DNA of 54,382 nt from Candidatus Andersenbacteria bacterium RIFCSPHIGHO2_02_FULL_46_16 (GCA_001817065.1 MHHQ01000016.1:1-54382), one strand, 5' to 3'. Positions 1,738-41,451 are shown, counted from the first letter of the stretch. The notes: generated by a model from the letters alone, not told the origin. Numbers and translations are program-made.

Positions 1738-2532
1738 TTAGGTAGTTTTGATGCCGACCCGACCGGTGTAATCGACACGATGGAGCAAAAGTGGTCTAGC
1801 CTGATGGCTAAAATATTCATTAACCGCCTGACGAGCACCGGCAAAATGACCATAATCGTCGAGGATCAATACTCCGTTAGTAACTAAACGAGGATAGAGA
1901 TGAACCAATTCGTGGTAGGTAGATTTATACCAGTCTGTATCGAGTCTAAGTAAGGATATTTGCTGGGGAGAAGAGGCGGGCAAGGTGTGTTCTACTAATC
2001 CTTCAACATAGACGAGGTAACTATCCGGATAGTGGGTGAGTTGCATGTTTTGTTTTACTTCCGCCAGGGAAGCATAGGCGTAGTCATTATGGTCAGCGTG
2101 TTGCTGATGACGCCAGGTGTGGTGCGCCGGTGAGTTGTCGGAGATGCGGATATCTTCCTTGGTTGGCTCGGTCATGCCCTTAAAAGTGTCATACAGGTAG
2201 ATCGGACGATTGGAAATATGATGCTTCAACAAAGTGAGGGCAATCAACATGGTACTCCCCCCTTTCCAGACCCCGCATTCGACGAAATCACCCGGGATAT
2301 TGTTGGCAATAATATATTCAATTGACTGATAGAGCGAATACATACGTTCCAGAGAGGTCATGGTATAAGGTTGGCATTGGTGGTAAATGGGGGCGAAACC
2401 TGGATCCATATCCTTAGGAAATCCGCGATGGATAGTAATGTTACGGCGGTGGCCGCTAACGTACAACTTGATGCCAAGCGCCTCCGCACCATTTTGTAAT
2501 AAATGTTTAAGTTGAGTGAGGTCGTGTGGCAT
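1738..2532 (-). CDS. TylF/MycF/NovP-family sugar O-methyltransferase
   Basis: Motifs YTMTS.ER, GDFVECGVWKGGS, YDTFKGM, ISLLRLDTDWYKST, LILDDYG. Confidence 0.9.
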   Translation of the reverse strand: MPHDLTQLKHLLQNGAEALGIKLYVSGHRRNITIHRGFPKDMDPGFAPIYHQCQPYTMTSLERMYSLYQSIEYIIANNIPGDFVECGVWKGGSTMLIALTLLKHHISNRPIYLYDTFKGMTEPTKEDIRISDNSPAHHTWRHQQHADHNDYAYASLAEVKQNMQLTHYPDSYLVYVEGLVEHTLPASSPQQISLLRLDTDWYKSTYHELVHLYPRLVTNGVLILDDYGHFAGARQAVNEYFSHQARPLLLHRVDYTGRVGIKTT

Positions 2533-4513
2533 TGGTATCCTTGGTTAGTACTATACCCCATTCATAGCCAAAGCTAGCGGGTAGTAAATAATCGAGAGCG
2601 GCGACGGCAACAAGCAGCGGATGAATGAGGCGAAGCAGGGGTAATAATTTCTCATGCTGGGCGAAATCAAGCGGATTGGATGGTGATAAAGCCAAGTTGT
2701 ATCCGGTCGTGACACGGGAAGGTTGGTGAAGGGTCTTATAGGCAGCGTTGTAGGTCAACTCGATAAGTTCAGTAAAGGCTTTAGAGAATTGTGTGGAATG
2801 AACAATTGTTAAATTAGCCGAAGCACCTAGCTTAACTAGTTCTGTCCAGGCAAAGCCGTCACGAGTGTGCCCGTGCGCCGCCTGATCAATATGAAAGACC
2901 TTATCGGCTAGGTAACGGAATAAATAGAATCCCTGATCGTCAGCCGGTGTGGTAATAAAAATGTGCCCGCTGGGAAGCAGTAGCTCGCGCAGCCGACTAA
3001 GGAACCGGTCGACATCCGTCAGGTGTTCGATAACATCCGATACGGTGATGATTTGGTAGGAGTTAGGCGGCAGTGATTGATCGTAGATATCTGACGTTAA
3101 TACGCGTCCCTGGACAATAGCTCTGGTTTGCTTCGCAGTAGCAGGATCGGTTTCAATGAAGGTCCACTGCCCGCCCATCTTTTCCTGAAGATAACTTAAT
3201 GTACCAACGCCGCTGCCAACATCTAAACAGGTGGCATTGGCTCGCAAATGATGGGCTAAAGCACGACTTAGCCAGCGCCATTTGGCTTGTTTTCGGATAC
3301 TGACATGAAAAACATGCAGTTGCCAGGAAACTTGGACGCGTCGGTAGGCAGAAATAATTCGGTTGGCAACATTGTCCCAGGAATACTTGGTGACCGCTTT
3401 ACTACGCACCTGACCGGCGATGACGCGCGCCGCGATGGGATCGCTTAACAGTTTATTTATGGCTTGTGCCAGCCCCCGAAAGTCTTCAGCCGGATTAGTG
3501 TAGACACCGATATCCCCGAGAATGTCACGATTAACTACCGTATCAAAAGCTACGGTAGGTAACCCAGTGGCCATATAGTTGTAGATTTTACCGTTAGCTT
3601 CGGTCTGGGTGCGCTTAGGAGCCACGGCAATGTCCCCTAAAGCGAGATAGCGGGGGGCATCCTCATAGCGGACACGCCCGGTTATACGAGTGTGATGATT
3701 GATATGTAATGCTTCAGCAAGATGTTGATAAACTGTTTCATTGGGATAGCCCATTAACAATAAGTACACATCGGGGTTGGTGGATAAGACGACCTGGAAG
3801 GCCTTTAGCAGTATGTCTACACCCTTATGGGGGCTAAGTCCGCCTAAATAGACGATGATGGGGCGATCGGTTGGTAATTTCAGGTCATGTAGCAGCTGCG
3901 GATCTGGCTGTTGGGGTTGGAAAATACGAGTATTCACACCGTCATAAGCCATGACAATACGCTTTGGGTTTATCTTAAAGCGTTCAATGAGCTCGCGGCG
4001 CATTTCGGTCGATTGGGCAAGAATAATAGCTGGCAAATGGTCGATTTTTTGCTCTAACGCGTACCAGAAACGTTGTAAGGCGGCTGATCTAGTTAGAATG
4101 AATTTGTGCGCGATTAACTCCCCCGTCAAACTACCTTGACAGTCAAAGACCAGGGGTAAATTGAAGAGACGGCTTATACCCCAGCCGATTAAACATCCTT
4201 CATGTAAATGGCCATGGATGACTTGCGGTTTAAACCGCCAAACGGCTACAACAGCAACAAAAAAGAGCAGGATGTCTAAATAAAATTTATGCCAGCTGGG
4301 GCCGATGGCTTCTTGTTTGTACCACGGAAGTCGCCAGGTACGGATGGTCTTTAAGCCTTTGATATCCCGACCTAGACCATAAGTAGCGATGATAGTTTTA
4401 ATGTTTTTCCGCTGTAGGGCCAAGGCCTGTTCGGCAATATGAACATGACAGCCGCGGTCGGCAAAGAAGGGGGTGGGAGCGATGATCAGGACGCGGGTGA
4501 GAGATGGAGGCAT
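2507..4513 (-). CDS. GT4 glycosyltransferase fused to a C-terminal class I SAM methyltransferase
   Basis: N-part: APTPFFADRGCHV, IHGHLHEG, YLGGLSPHKGVD, EANGKIYNYMATGLP (GT-B/GT4). C-part: CLDVGSGVG, DVIEH, LLPSGHIFITTP. Start placed at ATG 4513 (MPPSL). Confidence 0.85.
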   Translation of the reverse strand: MPPSLTRVLIIAPTPFFADRGCHVHIAEQALALQRKNIKTIIATYGLGRDIKGLKTIRTWRLPWYKQEAIGPSWHKFYLDILLFFVAVVAVWRFKPQVIHGHLHEGCLIGWGISRLFNLPLVFDCQGSLTGELIAHKFILTRSAALQRFWYALEQKIDHLPAIILAQSTEMRRELIERFKINPKRIVMAYDGVNTRIFQPQQPDPQLLHDLKLPTDRPIIVYLGGLSPHKGVDILLKAFQVVLSTNPDVYLLLMGYPNETVYQHLAEALHINHHTRITGRVRYEDAPRYLALGDIAVAPKRTQTEANGKIYNYMATGLPTVAFDTVVNRDILGDIGVYTNPAEDFRGLAQAINKLLSDPIAARVIAGQVRSKAVTKYSWDNVANRIISAYRRVQVSWQLHVFHVSIRKQAKWRWLSRALAHHLRANATCLDVGSGVGTLSYLQEKMGGQWTFIETDPATAKQTRAIVQGRVLTSDIYDQSLPPNSYQIITVSDVIEHLTDVDRFLSRLRELLLPSGHIFITTPADDQGFYLFRYLADKVFHIDQAAHGHTRDGFAWTELVKLGASANLTIVHSTQFSKAFTELIELTYNAAYKTLHQPSRVTTGYNLALSPSNPLDFAQHEKLLPLLRLIHPLLVAVAALDYLLPASFGYEWGIVLTKDTNATRPHST

Positions 4514-33639: not shown

Positions 33640-34410
33640 TTGTTCTCTAATAGGAACAAAAGTGATACAATGGAAATGTATTTTCTTTTTTCCATGACAA
33701 AACCGGGACCAAAACCTAGTAGAACCTCTAATCCAAGCTGGACGCCGGAGTTGGCTTACGCATGTGGATTAATTGCGACTGACGGCTCCCTTTCTAAAGA
33801 TGGTAGGCATATAAATCTGACATCTAAAGACGTGGAGCAACTCGAGACTTTTAAGAGGTGCATAGGAATTAACAATAAAATTGCATGGAAATCTAGTGGG
33901 TCATATAGAAACAGTTGTACATATGTGCAATTTGGCGATGTTGTTTTGTATAAATGGCTCATTTCTATTGGTATTACGCCAAAAAAGACTTTCACTATTG
34001 GTGTTGTAAATATTCCTGACAATTACTTTGCTGACTATTTAAGAGGTGAATTTGATGGTGATGGATCCACTCATGCTTATTGGGATACCAGATGGCACAG
34101 CAGTGTATCGCTATACTTGACTTTTGTGTGTGCTAGCAAAAAACACTTGAGATGGTTAAGAGGTGGAATAAAAAGAATGTTTAAAGCCGATGGCCTGATA
34201 CGATGTTATACAAATCATGTTCCCTATTTATTGTTTGCCAAAACAGAAGCAAGAAAGGTTTTTGAGGCGATGTATTATTCTGATGCTATCCCTTTTCTGA
34301 AGCGTAAAAAAGACAAATTTGATCGGCAATGGAGTTCTTTGGAGCAGTCACGGATTGGTAAAAGACCCGCAGGTTTTAAGGGGGGTGGTTCAATAATGCG
34401 TATAGCTTGA
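33640..34410 (+). CDS. Free-standing two-motif LAGLIDADG homing-endonuclease-like protein (real start probably 33670-33694)
   Basis: LAYACGLIATDGSL and DYLRGEFDGDGS motifs; no intron or intein host visible. Confidence 0.85.
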   Translation: MFSNRNKSDTMEMYFLFSMTKPGPKPSRTSNPSWTPELAYACGLIATDGSLSKDGRHINLTSKDVEQLETFKRCIGINNKIAWKSSGSYRNSCTYVQFGDVVLYKWLISIGITPKKTFTIGVVNIPDNYFADYLRGEFDGDGSTHAYWDTRWHSSVSLYLTFVCASKKHLRWLRGGIKRMFKADGLIRCYTNHVPYLLFAKTEARKVFEAMYYSDAIPFLKRKKDKFDRQWSSLEQSRIGKRPAGFKGGGSIMRIA

Positions 34411-34444
34411 AAAGAATCTAATGTACCTGTACTGTCTTAAATGC

Positions 34445-34528
34445 GCGGACGTGGAGAAACCGGCAGACTCGCAGCCTTGAGGGGGCTGTGGCCGCAAGGC
34501 CGTGTGGGTTCAAATCCCACCGTCCGCA
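34445..34528 (+). tRNA. tRNA-Leu(GAG)
   Basis: GCGGACG/CGTCCGC acceptor; CAGCC-TTGAGGG-GGCTG; long variable arm GGCC-GCAA-GGCC. Confidence 0.95.
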
Positions 34529-34744
34529 CTTAGATTCGGCTCATAGCCTCGCTCAGTGTAAACACAGTTTAAAACTAGGTTCGCCCCGAACTACGTAGAG
34601 TTTGGGGCGCCCAGTACCATACGTGGTACTGGGCAAGTCATCTCGTCCGCACTAAATTGGACTTCCCTATTTTTTGGAAGCTAAAGCAATGCAGCTACGC
34701 CACTATTTATCGGGAAGGCTTAGCGCTATTATTTGATACATTTA

Positions 34745-34784
34745 TTGTCAGAAATTGACAAATGTGTAATTCGTGTGCTATAGT
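34745..34784 (+). promoter_or_regulatory. Promoter of the TrmB-like gene with an overlapping palindrome
   Basis: TTGACA 34755-60, TGc-TATAGT 34779-84; TTGTCA-N5-TGACAA dyad over the -35. Confidence 0.6.
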
Positions 34785-34793
34785 AGCGGCAGT

Positions 34794-35555
34794 ATGGTCA
34801 ATGATCTTGAACTTGAATTGCAGAAAATCGGGCTTGATGAGCGCGAGGCTAAGGTTTATTTAGCGGCGTTGGAGCTAGGGCCCAGCCCGGTGCAGAAAAT
34901 TGCCCAGCGGGCGGGTATACCTCGTGCCACCAGTTATCTAGTACTGGATGATCTGCGGGATAAAGGGTTCATCACTACGTATGACGAGGGTAAAAAAACA
35001 TACTTTGTTGCTGAATCACCAGAACGACTGACAAATTTGGTAGATGAACGGGAAGCAGATATTAAAAGGCAAAAAGAAGTGATAAACAAACTTGTTCCGG
35101 AGCTAATTTCCCGGGGACAGTTTGAGCGGGGGCAGCGCCCGGTTGTGAGATATTATGAAGGGGCACAAGCTATTGGCGGCTTTGTGAGAGATTTACTGAC
35201 AGGTCGTGGTGGTGAAGTTCTTAATATTTTACATTTAGATCGTGCAATAAAGACATTAGAGCAGACCGGATTTCCAATAGAGAAAGTCCGCGAACGCCGA
35301 GCTAAGAATCGCATCAAGAGCCGTGTTATCTACACAGCTAATAATGGTCCGGTTAAGGGTTATTCAGCGAAGTTACGACAGGCTAAGTTTATCCCTGTGG
35401 ATCAATATCCCCTTGAGGCTGATATTAGTGTACGTGGAGATCGAGTATTCTTTATTCCTTACTCAATACCTTTGAGGGGTGTGGCAATAGAGGATAAAGC
35501 AGTTGCTAATGCCCTTAAAATGGTTTTTGAGTTGCTTTGGGATAAACTAGGGTAA
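34794..35555 (+). CDS. TrmB-family transcriptional regulator
   Basis: LQKIGLDEREAKVYLAALELG, IAQRAGIPRATSYLVL (wHTH), VRYYEG effector domain. Confidence 0.88.
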   Translation: MVNDLELELQKIGLDEREAKVYLAALELGPSPVQKIAQRAGIPRATSYLVLDDLRDKGFITTYDEGKKTYFVAESPERLTNLVDEREADIKRQKEVINKLVPELISRGQFERGQRPVVRYYEGAQAIGGFVRDLLTGRGGEVLNILHLDRAIKTLEQTGFPIEKVRERRAKNRIKSRVIYTANNGPVKGYSAKLRQAKFIPVDQYPLEADISVRGDRVFFIPYSIPLRGVAIEDKAVANALKMVFELLWDKLG

Positions 35556-35570
35556 AATTTGTCAAAGAAG

Positions 35571-35599
35571 TTGACATTTATTGATATTTGGGATACACT
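35571..35599 (+). promoter_or_regulatory. sigma70 promoter of a ~190-nt mini-transcript
   Basis: TTGACA-17 bp-TACACT. Confidence 0.7.
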
Positions 35600-35604
35600 G
35601 TTAT

Positions 35605-35798
35605 TACCTATTATTGTAAGGTACGTTCTTCAGCGCATGGCCTAGTGAGAAAGGAGGATAAAATGGGCGGAGGCTAAATTACCAGGGTGTCGAACGGTAG
35701 TGGTAACAAAGTTCTTTTGGTTCGCTAACCGTTCGACACGACGCAACAGCCCGGGACTAGACATTACACATTGTGAAGTCTGGTCACCGGGCTTTTTT
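35605..35798 (+). ncRNA. Candidate small RNA / minimal mRNA (SD plus MGGG*)
   Basis: Promoter, AAGGAGG at 35651-57, ATG GGC GGA GGC TAA at 35663-77, 12-bp stem 35687-35739, terminator 35748-35798. Confidence 0.5.
35748..35798 (+). terminator. Intrinsic terminator
   Basis: AGCCCGG-GACTAGAC...GTCTGGTC-aCCGGGCT followed by a T-run. Confidence 0.75.
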
Positions 35799-35852
35799 AT
35801 TTATTATATATAACAGATTATGTATGTATTATATTAGCTGATTTAAGCGGAT

Positions 35853-35916
35853 ATTATAGCAATGGTGAAAATATAGTGTCATAAATCTTGACATAATTTT
35901 ACCGTTCTGCTAAGGT
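35853..35916. promoter_or_regulatory. Back-to-back promoters with closely spaced -35 elements
   Basis: Plus strand: TTGACA 35888-93, 17 bp, TGc-TAAGGT 35911-16. Minus strand: ATGACA (35882-77), 18 bp, TGc-TATAAT (35858-53). Confidence 0.6.
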
Positions 35917-35953
35917 GCCCGTTACACAGAAATTTCAGAGGCAGACAGTTATC

Positions 35954-36226
35954 GGACAGCACCTTTCAGAAAACAACGTACATAACCTTTAACGCGGAGC
36001 CCTGGTCACATGAACTGGGTTCAGAGCCTTGGTAGCTCATTTGCCCAAAGTGGCCGGTATCAAAAGCGCTCCATCATCGTTTTAGGTTTCGTTTTGTTTT
36101 CTCAAAGGTGCTTGTTCCAGGAAATTAAAACTGGCGAGTACTTTGACAATTAAATAATTTCCCCTTTAGCTCCGAGCGTAACAGATCAAGAATGGAGTAG
36201 CTTCTGGGGGCTGAAGTGGAAATTAT
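35954..36226 (+). ncRNA. Highly structured 5' leader (long rod with multibranch apex, boxA-like site, second hairpin)
   Basis: GGACAGCACCTTTCAGAAAACAACG pairs with CGTTTTGTTTTCTCAAAGGTGCTTGTTCC; inner AACCT/AGGTT, AACG/CGTT, GGAGC/GCTCC; GTACTTTGACAA at 36138-49; ATAATTTCC/GGAAATTAT hairpin. Confidence 0.55.
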
Positions 36227-36256
36227 GCGTCAACACAGACACAAAGGGGGTAAACC

Positions 36257-36514
36257 ATGATCGTAAGAAATCCGGTAACGGGTACCCGGGGTTCCGATTT
36301 TGTGGATGCCCTGCCCAATGATTGGGACGAGGCATGGAAGTGGGCGGAACAGCGTGCGGGGAGCAGGGGAACGGGTGATGGCTTTGTCTCTCCTGACCTT
36401 CTGCGACGCGCGTACGTGTTCCTTTTTCAGGCGTTCGCCAGTGACTGTGGCGCCATGAAAGAGATCCAAACTCTCACGGTCACCCAGGTTGTCGAGTGGT
36501 ACCTGGATTTCTAG
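36257..36514 (+). CDS. Hypothetical protein (85 aa)
   Basis: ATG with AAGGGGG SD; first gene after the structured leader. Confidence 0.65.
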   Translation: MIVRNPVTGTRGSDFVDALPNDWDEAWKWAEQRAGSRGTGDGFVSPDLLRRAYVFLFQAFASDCGAMKEIQTLTVTQVVEWYLDF

Positions 36515-36794
36515 CAAACCACTCTCGGGATTGCACGGAGGCATGGCTTGACCCAACGAGCCCCCTTACCCTAGTACCAGAGCAAAGTTTGGTGCGGGAC
36601 TTCGCAATCCCTTTCCCTCTTTCGCGGTCAGCGTCAACTGACGTTTGGTCGTGAATGAGGGGAAACTCTAAGGGGGGAGAAATAAGAAATACTGTTAAGG
36701 AGCTGAAAGCCGGTGCCATCTGTGCCTCCTGAAAACCGGCAATGCTTATTTCTCTTTATCACTCGTCCGTCACTTTTTTAGAAGGAACAGAAGG

Positions 36795-37112
36795 ATGATG
36801 AATGAACAAGAAGTGCGTCGGTTGCGGTTTGAAATGTCTACTAAACTCTCTTTGTTGGCTGACGAGAGTGGGGACAAGAGGTTGTCCCTGGCGTCGGTTT
36901 TGCTCGACCCGCTGGCCACTGATGAGGAAGTGGGTGCCGAGTTTGCCGCTGCCAACATGACTGTCTGGCTGGAGAGGGTTCTGGCCGTGGCCGAGCGGAT
37001 CGAGGCTGACGCGAAGGCTGCGGAGGAGGCAATTCATTTCGACCGTCAGACTGATTGGGAGACGGACATCTCGGATGCCGAGCAAGGATGCTCTCCGGAA
37101 CCTCCTTTTTGA
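36795..37112 (+). CDS. Hypothetical acidic protein (105 aa)
   Basis: AAGGA SD; helical body; acidic tail ending EPPF, reminiscent of an SSB-type C-terminal tip. Confidence 0.7.
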   Translation: MMNEQEVRRLRFEMSTKLSLLADESGDKRLSLASVLLDPLATDEEVGAEFAAANMTVWLERVLAVAERIEADAKAAEEAIHFDRQTDWETDISDAEQGCSPEPPF

Positions 37113-37271
37113 ACTCTCGTTAATCAAGCAGGTTGGCAGGAACACCGCGCTTAGTTCACAAGAACTATGCCTGCCGTAAAACACAAGCGGATTGTACTCT
37201 TGACCGTGAGAGGCATTGAGAGGAATCGTGGTTTGCGATTCTCTCTGTGAGCGGTATGGGAGAAAAACACC

Positions 37272-37616
37272 ATGGCGAAAGTTTACTTTGGTTTTGCATT
37301 AGCTGATTCTATGTTCAATGGTGACTGCACGATTGTGCGCCGTCAGTTGACAGCAGAGGAGGCTAAGGTGCGTGTTGATCAGGGAGTAGTGCCCAGTCTG
37401 AATCCGAGTCACAAGGCGACGATTGAAGCGATGCGGACTCGGTTTGGGATTGACGTGGCGATCCCCGAAAAACCGCCGCAAGTTTCTCTCTCCGCTGGCG
37501 ACTCCATTATAGTGATGGGTGTCCGTGGTTTGGCGCGGTTGACTGACCGTCATGAATACACCGCGGAGGAAATAGCGTCAGTGAACTTCGCTTTCGCGGA
37601 GTACGCCGTTAGCTAG
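37272..37616 (+). CDS. DUF1874/STIV-B116/YddF-like protein; candidate AcrIII-1-type cA4 ring nuclease (divergent)
   Basis: 114 aa with GGGAG SD. Pattern KVYFGFA...SM, LTAEEAK, SLNPSH47KAT, FGI, VSLSAGDSIIV, RLTD...YTAEEI, F.F..Y follows the family layout as recalled (KVYLxNAFS..M, SxIGH47xST, L..GD, RLxEG..L..EE). Confidence 0.6.
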   Translation: MAKVYFGFALADSMFNGDCTIVRRQLTAEEAKVRVDQGVVPSLNPSHKATIEAMRTRFGIDVAIPEKPPQVSLSAGDSIIVMGVRGLARLTDRHEYTAEEIASVNFAFAEYAVS

Positions 37617-37801
37617 TTGTTCTTTCCAGCTTCAGCTGGTTTTCCCTAAAATCCTCGGGATAAAAAACCAGGTATCCCCAAAGTCAACTGATTTTGGGGC
37701 TTTTCTTTCAGAATCTTACGTAATATATATCGGTAGGATTCTGGAATCAAAAGTTAGCAAGTTAGGTGCACTGTTCTTTTTTAAGGGAGGCCTTGAAGGC
37801 C

Positions 37802-38482
37802 ATGAACAAGAGAAACTATTGGCTGGAGAAAGTTCCAGTGTGGGCGTCACAAATCGGTCTTCTTTTTAATGAAGCTGAGACGGTGGGGCTGGAGCATAAA
37901 CGGGCGCAAAAGTGTCTGTTTGCGGTCGCATGGCGTATGGGACTGTTGCGCTTTTTGCGGACGACGCGGGAGAAGGAGATAAACGGACTTCTGGTTGACC
38001 AGACAGAACCTCGCTATTGGTGGGGTTCGTGGGAAGCCTGGGAGGCGGGCAAGCGCGGCTGGTTGTCAGCGGCTTTGGCTTGTCCTTTAGATTTTTCCAA
38101 TTTCGTCAAACTGTGTTTGGCGGAGGAGGAAATTGTACGGGCGGCCACCGAGAATCCAGAGATCACGCCAGATACTCCTCCTATGACATCAGAGGAAGAA
38201 GCTGACTTTCTGGAAACTATTGTAGCCAGCGTTGAGAGTCGGCCTCTGGACATAACTGGAGACTACGCCGGTGTTAACACGCTGCGCCATCGCCTGGAGG
38301 AAATTTCTACTTTGTGGTTGCAGCAACGCACGCGCCTTACCCGTCGTGAAAAACGGCTGGCAGAGCAGTGGGTGGAACTCACTGGTTGGCCACCGACTGG
38401 TGTGTGGTCACCTGCCTGGCAGTGGGCGCCATTTTTGCTGGCGAACTTCACCAGGAAGTGGCACCACGCCAGGGTTGAGTGA
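37802..38482 (+). CDS. Hypothetical Trp-rich protein (~226 aa)
   Basis: Long ORF with GGGAGG upstream of ATG 37802; followed by a terminator. Confidence 0.65.
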   Translation: MNKRNYWLEKVPVWASQIGLLFNEAETVGLEHKRAQKCLFAVAWRMGLLRFLRTTREKEINGLLVDQTEPRYWWGSWEAWEAGKRGWLSAALACPLDFSNFVKLCLAEEEIVRAATENPEITPDTPPMTSEEEADFLETIVASVESRPLDITGDYAGVNTLRHRLEEISTLWLQQRTRLTRREKRLAEQWVELTGWPPTGVWSPAWQWAPFLLANFTRKWHHARVE

Positions 38483-38506
38483 GATAGCTTTCGCAGCTTG
38501 TTATTT

Positions 38507-38538
38507 GAGGACTCTTACTCTAGTGGGGGTCCTTTTTT
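38507..38538 (+). terminator. Intrinsic terminator closing the 36.2-38.5 kb operon
   Basis: GAGGACTCTTAC-tcta-GTGGGGGTCCTT followed by TTTT. Confidence 0.7.
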
Positions 38539-38547
38539 CCTTTTTTA

Positions 38548-38925
38548 TTATTGGTCGTTATCCCTAGAGATAAACCTTTGTTCTAATTCCGCTTTGTGTG
38601 CAGCGGGGATATTTTTAAAAGCTTCAACTTGGGCTTTCTCGAAGATAGCACAGAGCTTCATTAGGTCGCTGTCTGAACCGGCGGAACCTTTTGGTTGTCT
38701 CAATCTATCAAACTCATCCGATGCACGTGGCAGTTTAATTCCATTCTCACGCGCAAAATCATTAATGATTATGTAGCTCTTGATGGCATGACTAAGCTCC
38801 TCAACATTTTGTAGCGTATAATCAACTTTTTCGCGTTGATAATCATCCATTCCTCCAAGATTCATAGGTTTGTCAACTTTTTCTTCGGAGCTGGGACGAA
38901 AACTTGATGGTTCGTGTTCGATCAT
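38548..38925 (-). CDS. Hypothetical protein (125 aa)
   Basis: ATG-initiated ORF with protein-like charged composition, convergent on the operon terminator. Confidence 0.6.
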   Translation of the reverse strand: MIEHEPSSFRPSSEEKVDKPMNLGGMDDYQREKVDYTLQNVEELSHAIKSYIIINDFARENGIKLPRASDEFDRLRQPKGSAGSDSDLMKLCAIFEKAQVEAFKNIPAAHKAELEQRFISRDNDQ

Positions 38926-39145
38926 AGTTATTTAGTAAAATAGTAGCACGTACATTAGACCCTCGGTAAGTGGTTTTGTTCACAGGTAGTTTTGTGTCAG
39001 GTTTATTGTAACGGTGAGCTATCTTTTTGATGGCGCTCTCTCAGCTGTGTCGCAATATTAGTTGCGGTGAATTAGATACTTATTCTGATATTTATAGGCG
39101 GATAATTTATATGATATGCTTTCATATATGGGATCAGAATCGAAC

Positions 39146-39921
39146 ATGGAGAGCAATTTTGGTGATGTTAAGGGTGAACAAGGTCAAGAAAATGTTCCTG
39201 CTGAGGTGGTGGCGGAAGGATTAGACGAGGACATACAACCAGTTAATGAGGACGTAATGCAGCGGCGGCAAGTGGAAATAACAAGTGATATGAAAAGTGC
39301 AGAGATCGTGGAACGTTATAATGTGTCGAGAGCGACTGCTTGGCGTGCTTTGAAGCGGGCTGAAAAGGACCCAGAGGGACGGAGCTATAGATGTCACATT
39401 ATGAAATGCCACTCTTAAATAAACGGGTGGCGGCGCGGGGGACCCCCACCGAGCGCCTGCAGGCTGCCCGCCTGGCAGGCCGAAGCCGTCGGGTGGGGGT
39501 GCAGCGCCGACAGGGCCCGTCACTATATTTGTGGCATTTCATAATGTGACTTCCATACATCTTTCTTAACTATCATGTTAAAGAGATTAATATTGATGAG
39601 AATTGGGCGAAGTCGCATCACGAGGAGTTGACTGAAGACGCCGATTTTGGTGCTCGACTGGCAATAAAGAGTATGAAGAGGGTTTCGGGTTCGGTGGAGG
39701 CCTTCCTCTCTCCGCTTTCTTTTGATGACCTGAAGCAAGAAGCATATATTAGATTATGGCAATTATCAGGCAGGGTGGAGGATAGAGATAATTCAAAATG
39801 GAGGCGTGGAGTGGCACTTAGAGCCGCGTCAGATTTTATTCGGACCAATGTTGTTCGCCATCAGAGCCGACGTTCAAAAGCAAACCCAGAAACTATAAGG
39901 GAGTCATTTGAAGAAGAATAG
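39146..39921 (+). pseudogene. HTH plus sigma-70 region-2-like gene disrupted by MITE-A
   Basis: Removing 170 bp (MITE plus one TA) fuses 39146..39387 in frame with 39558..39921, giving ...DPEGRSY-IFLNYHVKEINIDENWAKSHHEELTEDADF... (~201 aa). Confidence 0.8.
39388..39555 (-). mobile_element. MITE-A copy 4
   Basis: Reverse-complement copy; TA at 39386-87 and 39556-57. Confidence 0.92.
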
Positions 39922-39976
39922 TAAAAATGAGTTGGAGAAGTTGAATACCAAGTGTTGAATTCCTTAAATCTACCAA

Positions 39977-40416
39977 TCATATCTTGTCATTACGCTCCGA
40001 TTTTCGTAACACAACATACCACCCCGGATGATATGGGCCATGCGAGTCGTCCATGACGGCGGCGATATTGAGACTGGAATAAATCCGAAATTCTTTTACT
40101 TGCCCATAGTGCAGAGCAGAAAGGCCATCGTAAGCATTAGGGTCTTCGGTGTAATAACCCGCTACCTGATTCAAGAAAAGTAATGTGCAAGATCCGGATT
40201 TGTCGGTAATGTCTGCCACAGAACGGAATATATAACCCTCCTCCGTTAATTGCCGGTAAATTTCTGTGGCTGTTTTTCTGGGTTACCAAAAGTATGGGCA
40301 ATGATATGGGTGAGATCCAGATTGTTTTTTATAGGAACTTTGGAAAGTCCTGCACAGCGTCTCCGGTAATTCTCCGCGTCCAGCCCACCGTCGGATAATG
40401 GCAGATCAGGCTCATT
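39977..40416 (-). pseudogene. 5'-truncated, frameshifted hypothetical gene
   Basis: Minus strand reads NEPDLPLSDGGLDAENYRRRC...FGNPEK, then a frameshift at an A-run (~40273-77), then TATEIYRQLTEEGYIFRSVADITDK...NDKI*. The 5' end abuts the 60-bp repeat. Confidence 0.5.
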
Positions 40417-40472
40417 TGTTCAGTTTCCGCTCGAAAAAGGTTCGCGCAAAGTGTATGATTACAGCACCAGTA
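40413..40472 (+). repeat. 60-bp motif shared with 53651..53710 (putative integrative-element end)
   Basis: 54/60 identity by manual alignment. Confidence 0.75.
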
Positions 40473-40513
40473 GTAACCAATAATCAGTAACTTGTAATCA
40501 GTTTGATGTTGGG

Positions 40514-40585
40514 TGGGCGGTATAGGATTTGAACCTATGGCCTACTGAATGTAAGTCAGTTGCTCTACCACTGAGCTAACCGCCC
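40514..40585 (-). tRNA. tRNA-Val(TAC)
   Basis: GGGCGGT/ACCGCCC acceptor; ACTGA-CTTACAT-TCAGT. Confidence 0.95.
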
Positions 40586-40758
40586 TATTAATAGATGTAT
40601 ACAGTGTTTTTCTATTAACGCAAAGGGGTAATAGTCCGAGCTTCTTTAGTTTGAAAAGACTAGGGACAAAGGCATCACCTGACTCTTGTTATTGGGACGC
40701 TGCTTCGGCTGCGGGTCATAAGTGGGTAATAAACGAACAAATATGATACAATAGATGT

Positions 40759-41451
40759 ATGCACCGGTTAGTCAATATTATTGATACAAAGTGGAGACCA
40801 GAACTGGCATATGCGATTGGCTTGATCGCGTCCGATGGCAACCTACGTAAGGATAATAAAGGAATTTGCTTTGTTTCAAAGGACAGGGAGCTTATAGATA
40901 GGTTTCGTGAATCTATTTCGCTGAAAAAGGAACCTTATAGGAGTGGTCGCGGTGGTACAAAAAAGAAAAATTATTGGACGGTTCAATTTAAGAGTAGAAA
41001 TTTTCATGATTTTCTTGTGAGTGTTGGCGTTACTCCTAAGAAATCAAAGACAATTAAGGCGGTTCAGGTACCAAACTCCTATTTTGCTGATTTTCTTCGT
41101 GGGCTTTACGACGGAGACGGTACTTTTTGGACTACTTGGGATAAGCGATGGCCTCAGAGCTTTGTTTATTATCTTGGTTTTAGTACAGCGAGCCCATATT
41201 TTGTTAGATGGCTTAAAAAGAGAATCGCAGATCAGTTTAAAGTAAAGGGTTATATTCATAATGGTGATGGAGTTTTTACAATCCGTTATGTCAAAGGGGA
41301 TTCGCGCAAATTATTTAAGGCAATGTATTATCGAAAAGGGTTATTATATCTATCCAGAAAATATCTAAAAATCAAAGAGGCGATTGATTATGATGAGCGG
41401 CTTAAAGATATTAGGATTCAGCAGAGGTCAGGTACTATAGTAGCAAGTTAA
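40759..41451 (+). CDS. Free-standing two-motif LAGLIDADG homing-endonuclease-like protein (paralog of 33640..34410)
   Basis: LAYAIGLIASDGNL and DFLRGLYDGDGT; shares WxPELAYA, SKD.E, G.TPKK, WD.RW and AMYY...L.RK with the first copy. Confidence 0.85.
   Translation: MHRLVNIIDTKWRPELAYAIGLIASDGNLRKDNKGICFVSKDRELIDRFRESISLKKEPYRSGRGGTKKKNYWTVQFKSRNFHDFLVSVGVTPKKSKTIKAVQVPNSYFADFLRGLYDGDGTFWTTWDKRWPQSFVYYLGFSTASPYFVRWLKKRIADQFKVKGYIHNGDGVFTIRYVKGDSRKLFKAMYYRKGLLYLSRKYLKIKEAIDYDERLKDIRIQQRSGTIVAS

Follow-up and report, generated by a model that had tools for sequence, protein, structure and literature searches.

Contig MHHQ01000016.1 of Candidatus Andersenbacteria bacterium RIFCSPHIGHO2_02_FULL_46_16 (GCA_001817065.1), a bacterium of the Candidate Phyla Radiation (CPR), carries four small open reading frames (ORF1 to ORF4) on the plus strand, separated by spacers that fold into hairpins and preceded by a gene for a TrmB-like regulator. 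The window analysed here is the entire contig (C16; 54,382 nt, with positions counted from its first letter), one of 32 contigs in a genome of 1.36 Mb that is 98.5% complete. With about even confidence the region is read as a regulated accessory operon in which the spacers serve as cis-acting RNA elements, and as one of a small family of loci in two related CPR families of ultra-small groundwater bacteria. Two of its hairpins are conserved and covary among relatives, the structure of one of them lies on the sense-strand RNA, the loci are linked to one regulator ortholog and their gene cargo is variable. A sequence-only reading of the same DNA had taken the region for a hairpin-saturated anti-defence or early-expression module, and its claims are taken up below where the results bear on them.

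A covarying hairpin on the sense-strand RNA

The hairpin that carries this reading is hpB, located ahead of ORF2, with a 19-bp stem, one bulged G and, abutting it on the 5′ side, a second hairpin, hpA. Fifteen copies of hpB from six loci, chosen by a pattern demanding both conserved stem ends, gave the consensus TTTCYCTC...GAGGGGAAA with the bulged G, and 91.9% of their alignment cells were paired as compared to 49-57% when the partner was slid by one to three columns. Nine pairs were changed on both sides and the covariation score was reached by none of 500 shuffles, the independent evidence coming from the 11 inner pairs and from additional copies that R1, a covariance model of hpB, detected. 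The alignment cells contained 42 G.U against 8 A.C combinations, one wobble position being kept in 10 and another in 13 of the 15 copies, and from this excess it follows that the structure acts as sense-strand RNA and not as single-stranded DNA (ssDNA). R1 scores likewise depended on the strand, with 50-62 bits for sense and 11-19 bits for antisense. Hairpin hpC, directly in front of ORF1 and related to hpB, behaved similarly in seven loci, with 90.1% of cells paired, six pairs changed on both sides and a covariation score reached by none of 500 shuffles; slid by -1 it was still 81% paired, due to runs of C and G.

Every canonical hpB copy has a GC-closed hairpin just 5′ of it, and these hpA hairpins are unrelated in sequence. 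Most genes of the sister loci are preceded by this two-hairpin module, and in 10 of 16 copies a Shine-Dalgarno (SD) site and a start codon opening an ORF of at least 65 aa follow 28-50 nt after hpB. The linker from hpB to the start is 28-43 nt long with 59-75% A+C in 8 of those 10 copies. The conserved stem base and bulge of hpB suggest a sequence-specific partner.

In its own genome R1 matched once (36608-36668, 55.8 bits) and the conserved motifs are likewise single-copy, so that the hairpins are not dispersed repeats such as repetitive extragenic palindromes (REP), bacterial interspersed mosaic elements (BIME) or miniature inverted-repeat transposable elements (MITE). The sequence-only reading had kept the stems apart from REP and MITE repeats, rightly, and had called them unique, which is so within the genome but not beyond it, since homologous hairpins recur in relatives. 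A search of titles and abstract beginnings, with supplements and subscription journals outside its scope, gave no description of the hairpin motif or of DUF1874, the family of ORF3, in CPR bacteria.

Folding and conservation of leader and spacers

Compared with dinucleotide shuffles, all four non-coding regions fold better than expected, with z of -3.75 for the leader, -3.00 for spacer 1-2 (280 nt), -1.96 for spacer 2-3 (159 nt) and -4.16 for spacer 3-4 (185 nt). Along the whole contig, divided into 679 segments of 120 nt, mean z was -1.47 in the 36 segments inside 35556-38560 and -0.27 in the 643 outside, and z below -2 was reached by 10/36 and 57/643, respectively (Mann-Whitney p 7e-6; the segments overlap and are not independent). 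The stems listed by the sequence-only reading are all readable in the sequence, and all but 37135-37175 are also found in the minimum free energy (MFE) folds.

The spacers are 93-95% identical to those of the closest relative, metagenome contig L013, and the coding parts 80-82%. Identity to L013 is 96% for hpB and 100% over the 49 aligned bases of hpA, of which L013 lacks 36 apical bases; it is 98.7% for the third hairpin of spacer 1-2 against 80% for the adjoining ORF2, and 93% over the 86 shared bases of spacer 2-3. A DNA search of 40 relatives gave a match in genome G021 only, in non-coding parts, and between G021 and G026 blastn matched only the non-coding flanks of a common gene (83-90%), the flanks being better kept than the ORF. 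Spacers that outconserve the genes, the covariation of hpB and hpC and the 42 G.U against 8 A.C all support the earlier proposal of a polycistronic RNA in which the stems have a function; its ssDNA or plasmid-leading-region alternative gains no support, the same G.U excess telling against a role as ssDNA.

The leader measures 338 nt from the -10 element to ORF1, close to the ~335 nt estimated previously. Its core, at about 36000-36070, is common to G021 with 81-82% identity over 57-74 nt, and a conserved word, ACTTTGACAA, stands at 36140-36149, with a ACTTTGACAA-like word in 6/6 loci. RNAalifold on six loci gave a consensus structure of 0 pairs because the alignment is too divergent, and the long stem at 35954-36118 reported by the sequence-only reading is thus without comparative support. 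A tRNA-like or Y-RNA-like nature of the leader core was dropped, the resemblance being by eye only and unsupported by ARAGORN and Rfam. At gathering score, Rfam 15 detected only tRNAs in the window; with E relaxed to 10 it gave no credible match in 35500-38700, and with E up to 1 no match in five related loci.

A family of loci with a constant frame and variable cargo

R1 was used to scan 151 related genomes, and 35 genomes of the family were checked for an ortholog of the regulator. Matches were obtained in 9/151 genomes, the hairpin occurring 1-5 times per locus, so that the search for similar cassettes in CPR genomes recommended earlier did reveal an array family. In each genome the strong matches, 17 in total, are confined to one contig (G044 5, G002 4, G012 4, G021 3 and the own genome 1), and all are oriented in the same way as the genes. 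Weaker matches were found in the sister family (G028, G026 and G029), and G006 gave one weak partial match. TrmB-like proteins are multi-copy and present in 35/35 family genomes, but only 6/35 (own, G012, G002, G043, G044 and G021) possess the regulator ortholog with at least 46% identity, and 5/6 of these have strong R1 matches; among the other 29 genomes, 28 are without R1 match, the remaining one being G006. The hairpin module lies downstream of this one TrmB-like ortholog in 7/8 loci with upstream sequence. The ortholog is the only protein common to nearly all loci of the family, with an identity of 79% in L013 and 42% in G026, where the full frame is present, and an array of small ORFs follows it wherever the sequence extends.

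The frame shared within the family consists of the TrmB-like gene, a predicted short RNA from a promoter P0, a second promoter, P1, followed by a leader that measures about 200-340 nt, and a row of small, mostly orphan genes. The P0 RNA comprises a strong SD, a frame of 4-9 codons ending in Gly-Gly-stop, a long hairpin and an intrinsic terminator. The parts of G021 are ordered as in the window, from TrmB homolog and promoter through a similar leader and an ORF1 homolog to the hairpin. Cargo replacement is seen in G002 and G044, two genomes of the same genus, which have the upstream gene, regulator, P1, leader, hpC and last gene in common, whereas between the frame and the last gene the hairpins alone match. 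Single genes are also common to otherwise different arrays (G021/G026 and G012/G029), and the cargo of sister arrays includes Ro60 (TROVE 6e-14 and vWA_Ro60), a cupin and a receiver domain.

Bacterial Ro60 genes usually adjoin Y-RNA genes. In locus L016 (G012:C12) the Ro60 gene is separated from an hpB copy by 570 nt without ORF (2450-3022, oriented), and Rfam gave nothing on this stretch. In another locus, L015, a distant ORF1 homolog (34%, 1349-1690) is directly followed by a LigT-type 2H phosphoesterase (1813-2379, E 1.7e-19).

Regulator and upstream unit

The winged-helix regulator of 260 aa has TrmB (3qph) and TrmBL2 as its nearest solved structures. A palindrome, TTGTCA-N4-TTGACAA, stands upstream of its gene (34700-34772), which makes autoregulation possible. 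TrmB-type winged-helix genes were also noted within about 4 kb of a DUF1874 gene in three other CPR lineages (L008, L009 and L010); these are other TrmB paralogs, recognised at 29% identity by tblastn in L009 and by eye from N-terminal sequence only in L008 and L010, and no hpB occurs there.

Between the regulator gene and the leader lies a unit that was compared in six loci (the window, L013, G012, G002, G021 and G044). The P0 box is found downstream of the regulator gene in 5/6 loci, G021 being the exception. In all six an SD is followed by a frame of 4-9 codons that opens with ATG and closes with Gly-Gly(-Gly) and a stop, the peptides being MGGG, MGGG, MNGG, MGGG, MGGTGG and MKKLVGGGG, with all three stop codons in use; a genome-wide search for a pattern similar to this mini-ORF unit gave two matches only. 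The mini-ORF is followed in 6/6 loci by 100-250 nt of structured sequence and then, shortly before P1, by a GC-rich, strongly folding stem and a T run, the stem of this terminator (T0) mostly reading GCCCGG..CCGGGC. In the window the segment 35681-35800 has a z of -9.7, the lowest of the 679. The long hairpin and T0 would end the P0 transcript just before P1, and the unit has the appearance of an attenuator with leader peptide, or else of a small RNA with dual function.

P1 is kept in 6/6 loci including the ..CTGCTA.. stretch leading into the -10 element, and was not called by the consensus promoter scan. A single promoter had been described earlier; P1 is indeed present, but P0 with its mini-ORF and terminator (35559-35800) is a second conserved promoter that had been overlooked. 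The single terminator described with it also needs revision, as terminator-like hairpins follow ORF3 at 37626-37639 and 37676-37699. The box TGTCA-N6-TTGACA occurs at both P0 and P1. TGTCA-N5-8-TTGACA boxes are found 36 times genome-wide against 1-5 times in shuffles, and a role as locus-specific operator was ruled out by these 36 copies. About ten of the boxes lie within a longer repeat, TTGTCATTGA(A)TTGACATTTG.., resembling a dispersed element or a common promoter type (for example C1 5290, C5 6042, C7 15878, C13 12408, C14 9546 and C20 27475).

ORF3, a relative of AcrIII-1/Crn2 ring nucleases

The AlphaFold2 (AF2) model of ORF3 (predicted local distance difference test, pLDDT, 90.4; predicted template modelling score, pTM, 0.82) has the fold of the DUF1874 family. 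The best Foldseek match was AcrIII-1 of SIRV1 (6scf, E 9e-7, template modelling (TM) score 0.73), with 2x4i, 2j85 (STIV B116), 2j6b and 8y7f (Csx1-Crn2) among the others; 16 matches were obtained at E ≤0.001, and those listed were all of the DUF1874 fold. Across 33 sequences, residues S46, H47 and T50 do not vary, and the profile npSHkAT aligns with aiGHQAT of AFV3-109, placing H47 on the motif histidine, which has a catalytic role in SIRV1 gp29. The AcrIII-1-like gene suspected earlier was thus borne out by fold and by the family histidine.

Against Pfam PF08960, ORF3 itself scored 18.8 bits (E 0.0019), below the gathering cut-off of 26, and many of its relatives at 65-80% identity bear a precomputed PF08960 tag. 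At least 940 relatives exist, with 64-80% identity among the 120 matches listed; 7/401 genomes sampled from the phylum have one, as do several named CPR lineages. Weak profile matches were obtained to phrog_5063 (PHROGs, unknown function) and Csx16 (PADLOC). No Cas10 (two models), Cas1 or SMODS cyclase was found in the 98.5% complete genome, and the lack of Cas10 and Cas1 makes ORF3 an orphan ring-nuclease relative; searches for SAVED and CARF (Cas_APE2256) gave no match in the control genomes themselves. ORF3 is considered a predicted relative of cyclic-oligoadenylate ring nucleases, carried as one cargo gene.

ORF1, ORF2 and ORF4

Purine-rich, SD-like sites precede all four ORFs, as the sequence-only reading had it. 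That reading had also called the four ORFs orphans, which applies to ORF1, ORF2 and ORF4, all without known family, but not to ORF3 with its fold and 940 relatives. ORF1 is acidic, the first cistron in several loci and represented by four clusters among 5.8 billion proteins, with homologs in G021 (47%), L013, G028/L014 and L015; it is 82% identical to L013, with 6/4/15 differences at first, second and third codon positions. Atlas matches of ORF1, including ones with integrase-N-terminal labels, scored 0.87 at most with few shared features, which is chance level, and were not used. ORF2 is the acidic protein ending in PPF that had been singled out earlier, its isoelectric point (pI) being 4.24; it has seven clusters among 5.8 billion proteins, and compared with L013 it is 73% identical as protein and 80% as coding DNA, with differences of 18/11/35 showing a third-position bias. 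Neither ORF1 nor ORF2 gave a family in Pfam, PHROGs, NCBIfam or PADLOC. ORF4, rich in Trp (15 W) and all-helical, has four representatives among 1.84 billion proteins; one good AF2 model of five was obtained (pLDDT 71.8), and Foldseek gave no match at E ≤0.001, the best being designed helical repeats at E 0.49. Since relatives exist for all four ORFs and differences to L013 favour third positions, ORFs 1, 2 and 4 are real but rare orphan genes. Neither weak spacer folding nor a set of ordinary metabolic families, the pair of outcomes named as telling against the earlier proposal, was encountered, the spacers beating their shuffles and ORFs 1, 2 and 4 matching nothing known.

Layout of the region

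The coordinates of the features are collected in Table 1. The region is bounded by tRNA-Leu (34445) and tRNA-Val (40512), both called by ARAGORN, and between them stand the regulator gene and then the four ORFs. GC content is 50-56% across 36000-38500 and about 40-46% in the flanks. Two tyrosine recombinases (PF00589 matches) are encoded in the genome, on contigs C15 and C23, and none on C16, in agreement with the earlier statement that no integrase is nearby. Four DNA runs over 34400-40600, available as low-depth contigs, represented the same strain, and within the operon neither joints nor variants were seen.

Table 1. Positions of the operon, its upstream unit and its hairpins in the window.
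Feature	Position	Strand	Evidence
TrmB-like winged-helix regulator gene, 260 aa	34773-35555	+	Pfam TrmB E 8.7e-16, residues 16-80
Promoter P0: TGTCA-N6-TTGACA box, 17-nt spacer, TACACT	35559-35599	+	promoter scan 10/12
Strong SD and mini-ORF (35663-35677) reading M-G-G-G-stop	35651-35677	+	conserved in 6/6 loci
Long hairpin (about 35686-35741) and intrinsic terminator T0 (stem about 35748-35794, T run)	35686-35800	+	fold, terminator scan
Operon promoter P1: TGTCA 35877-35881, -35 TTGACA 35888-35893, -10 TAAGGT 35911-35916	35877-35916	+	read in sequence
Leader RNA, long stem 35954-36118	35917-36153	+	z -3.75
Hairpin hpC (TTTCCCC...GGGG..GAAA), immediately 5′ of first cistron	36154-36226	+	7-locus alignment
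ORF1, 85 aa, acidic orphan	36257-36514	+	homologs in relatives
Hairpin hpA, abuts hpB, sequence variable among copies	36527-36611	+	MFE fold
Hairpin hpB, conserved punctuation hairpin TTTCCCTC...GAGGGGAAA	36612-36665	+	19-bp stem, one bulged G
Third hairpin of spacer 1-2	36677-36754	+	MFE fold
ORF2, 105 aa, acidic, ends PPF, orphan	36795-37112	+	pI 4.24
Spacer 2-3, stems 37135-37175 and 37218-37245	37113-37271	+	z -1.96
ORF3, 114 aa, DUF1874 (AcrIII-1/Crn2 ring nuclease) fold family	37272-37616	+	AF2, Foldseek
Spacer 3-4, stems 37626-37639 / 37636-37671, terminator-like 37676-37699, stem 37707-37746	37617-37801	+	z -4.16, terminator scan (two terminator-like sites)
ORF4, 226 aa, Trp-rich (15 W), all-helical orphan	37802-38482	+	AF2
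Intrinsic terminator ending operon	38507-38544	+	12-bp stem then T run

Outside the operon, free-standing LAGLIDADG_3 ORFs occur on both flanks (33640-34410, 256 aa, and 40759-41451, 230 aa), each beside tRNA genes (tRNA-Leu 34445; tRNA-Val 40512 and tRNA-Phe 41532). In four groundwater/soil DNA runs the stretch 39387-39554, which overlaps the end of a small helix-turn-helix ORF (39116-39418), stands as a separate 168-nt contig. Its contig depth there is about 55-300, that of the neighbouring sequence about 3-7, which suggests an element common to many organisms of the community.

Proposed mechanism and alternative explanations

In the proposed operon the hairpins would act on the mRNA, marking and protecting the cistron boundaries as processing or exonuclease-stop sites and keeping each ribosome-binding site unstructured, with the result that unrelated genes would be expressed evenly from a single promoter. 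Entry into the array would probably be gated by the TrmB-like protein together with translation of the Gly-Gly-stop mini-ORF before T0, and ORF3, as a relative of cyclic-oligoadenylate ring nucleases, would be carried as one cargo gene. Several observations weigh against this reading. Because the seed pattern demanded both stem ends, the outer eight pairs of hpB are partly paired by construction, and the window has a single canonical hpA/hpB module, ahead of ORF2, with the related hpC ahead of ORF1. Spacer 2-3 is marginal, 7/200 shuffles folding equally well; the stems ahead of ORF3 and ORF4 are without counterpart in more distant loci and appear to be lineage-specific, kept only in close relatives as far as sequence extends; and the terminator-like hairpins after ORF3 may split the operon. 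In G028, where an ORF1 homolog and hpB occur, the 4.3 kb upstream contain no regulator ortholog, the TGTCA box is so common genome-wide that it is not assignable to the TrmB-like regulator, and no conserved RNA-binding or RNase gene was found in the loci.

A bolder version of the same reading, an unlikely one as a whole, is a "punctuated cassette operon": a CPR expression platform whose genes would be exchanged with, or at, an RNA-acting two-hairpin module, making it an integron analogue without integrase. The TrmB-like protein and the Gly-Gly-stop mini-ORF would form a gate reporting trouble in translation or tRNA supply, and RNA-centred cargo would serve an epibiont's response to RNA damage or its counter-defence. 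The cargo cited for this is the ring-nuclease relative here, Ro60 in one relative and the LigT phosphoesterase beside the distant ORF1 homolog.

The view of the whole operon as a counter-defence or early-expression module of phage or plasmid origin, acting through structured RNA or ssDNA and with ORF3 destroying cyclic-oligoadenylate signals, is held to be rather unlikely. It draws on the AcrIII-1/Crn2 fold of ORF3 with its conserved His, on the absence of a home type III system (no Cas10, no Cas1), on relatives so sporadic (7/401) yet so highly conserved as to suggest horizontal spread, on the raised GC content and on the patchy distribution of the locus family (9/151). Viral contigs, however, gave no relative of ORF1, ORF3 or ORF4 and neither of two exact hpB patterns, and the frame, which is located on chromosomes and linked with a host-type regulator, is kept across two bacterial families, so that the phage-early-region look noted from the sequence is not upheld. 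PHROGs and PADLOC matches are weak and for ORF3 only, and ORFs 1, 2 and 4 are without any known match. In sister arrays the recognisable cargo is Ro60, a cupin and a receiver domain, not known anti-defence genes, and the G.U pattern tells against an ssDNA role. Taken strictly, an anti-CRISPR is viral or mobile and acts on type III systems, and here no viral relative, no phage genes, no recombinase on the contig and no Cas10 or Cas1 in the genome were found; nothing at the locus points to a mobile origin, phage or plasmid. An anti-defence role is suggested by ORF3 and by no other gene, and such a role would be compatible with the cis-acting RNA operon while it is unsupported for the operon as a whole.

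An integron-like array, in which hpB would be an attC-like recombination site of folded DNA and genes would be inserted or excised by a recombinase encoded elsewhere, accounts well for the replacement of genes between hairpins in congeneric genomes with the frame kept, for the presence of the same gene in different arrays (G021-G026 and G012-G029), and for a hairpin with conserved stem base, variable top and one constantly bulged base; all hpB copies are moreover oriented alike, and some without a following gene resemble empty cassettes. It is nevertheless considered quite improbable. The 42 G.U against 8 A.C denote sense-strand RNA pairing that would be mismatched on the other strand, the fixed position of hpB before the SD suits an RNA role, and the ends TTTCYCTC/GAGGGGAAA are unlike the R''/R' consensus of attC when compared by eye. 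The two recombinases of the genome are on C15 and C23 and none is on this contig, and no excision joints were seen in the four DNA runs, which is weak evidence as these are contigs of one strain at low depth. Very improbable, and already disfavoured, is an ordinary small operon in which the stems would be plain terminators, attenuators or chance palindromes without common function. Three stems do resemble intrinsic terminators, spacer 2-3 is marginal, the leader gave no consensus fold, and same-strand gaps of at least 150 nt are not rare, making up 30% of 849 in the genome by a crude ORF-based measure that is inflated because small genes are missed; against this, the spacers are more conserved than the genes, hpB and hpC covary, and the module recurs in nine genomes, always at such loci.

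Gene regulation in CPR bacteria is almost unexplored, and the locus offers a compact unit of regulator, leader mini-ORF with terminator, and a covarying RNA hairpin that recurs ahead of orphan genes which can be interchanged. Should the hairpin serve processing, stability or translation, it would explain how foreign genes are plugged into one controlled transcript in reduced genomes, and Rfam would gain hpB as a new motif. Exchange of cargo at the hairpin, if it takes place, would mean that cassette arrays can arise by a second route that needs no integron integrase. ORF3 reveals a clade of ring-nuclease relatives, highly conserved, that circulates among CPR genomes lacking type III CRISPR, and the question is whose cyclic-nucleotide signals are degraded.

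Comparison with known systems

The likeness to AcrIII-1/Crn2 (DUF1874, PF08960) concerns ORF3 only, which has the same fold (Foldseek probability 1.00, TM 0.67-0.73), the same length class, the invariant H47 in an S-H-x-A-T motif aligned with GHQAT of AFV3-109, and the weak Csx16 profile match. Identity to the solved members (SIRV1 gp29 6scf, STIV B116 2j85 and Marinitoga Csx1-Crn2 8y7f) is 18-21%, with a score below the Pfam gathering threshold. ORF3 differs in belonging to a tight CPR-centred clade of at least 940 proteins, and in being chromosomal without Cas10 or Cas1, neither viral nor beside a type III system.

Operons of Rsr (Ro60), Y RNA and Rtc RNA repair occur in bacteria. The G012 array resembles them in its Ro60 homolog after 570 nt without ORF, as does the distant ORF1 homolog beside the LigT 2H phosphoesterase, and the family of ORF3 cuts RNA-type phosphodiesters. 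In these arrays, however, RtcA, RtcB and RtcR were not seen, Rfam gave neither Y RNA nor any other family, and most of the cargo is orphan.

Leader-peptide transcription attenuators of the trp, his and leu type are known, and the upstream unit has their parts in all six loci, where the genes to be regulated are preceded by an SD with a very short ORF and then by structured RNA with an intrinsic terminator. This likeness is one of the order of parts and not of alternative pairings, the fold being the MFE of 35600-35800 only. The peptide here differs in having 4-9 residues and always ending in Gly-Gly-stop, a second promoter lies between terminator and genes, and the cargo is not of glycine metabolism.

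As in integron arrays (IntI, attI, attC), a single promoter stands before a series of small genes, most of them orphans, that are interchangeable and set apart by imperfect hairpins. These hairpins are conserved at their ends, vary in the centre and contain one extra-helical base, and G002 and G044 have variable single-gene cassettes between the sites. The differences are that PF00589 is absent from C16 and no integrase thus adjoins the array, that the 42 G.U against 8 A.C and the stem ends, compared by eye with the R''/R' consensus, do not fit attC folding as ssDNA, and that a regulator, leader and attenuator-like unit occupy the place of integrase and attI.

Elements between cistrons that make mRNAs stable and translatable are known, such as the plastid intercistronic expression element (PMC2230500), and intercistronic stem-loops occur in bacterial operons. 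The hpA/hpB module is likewise a short structured element between cistrons of a putative common transcript, sited just upstream of the next ribosome-binding site and repeated along the operon. It differs in being a specific two-hairpin unit with conserved base and bulge, confined to one locus type in one bacterial order and tied to one regulator ortholog.

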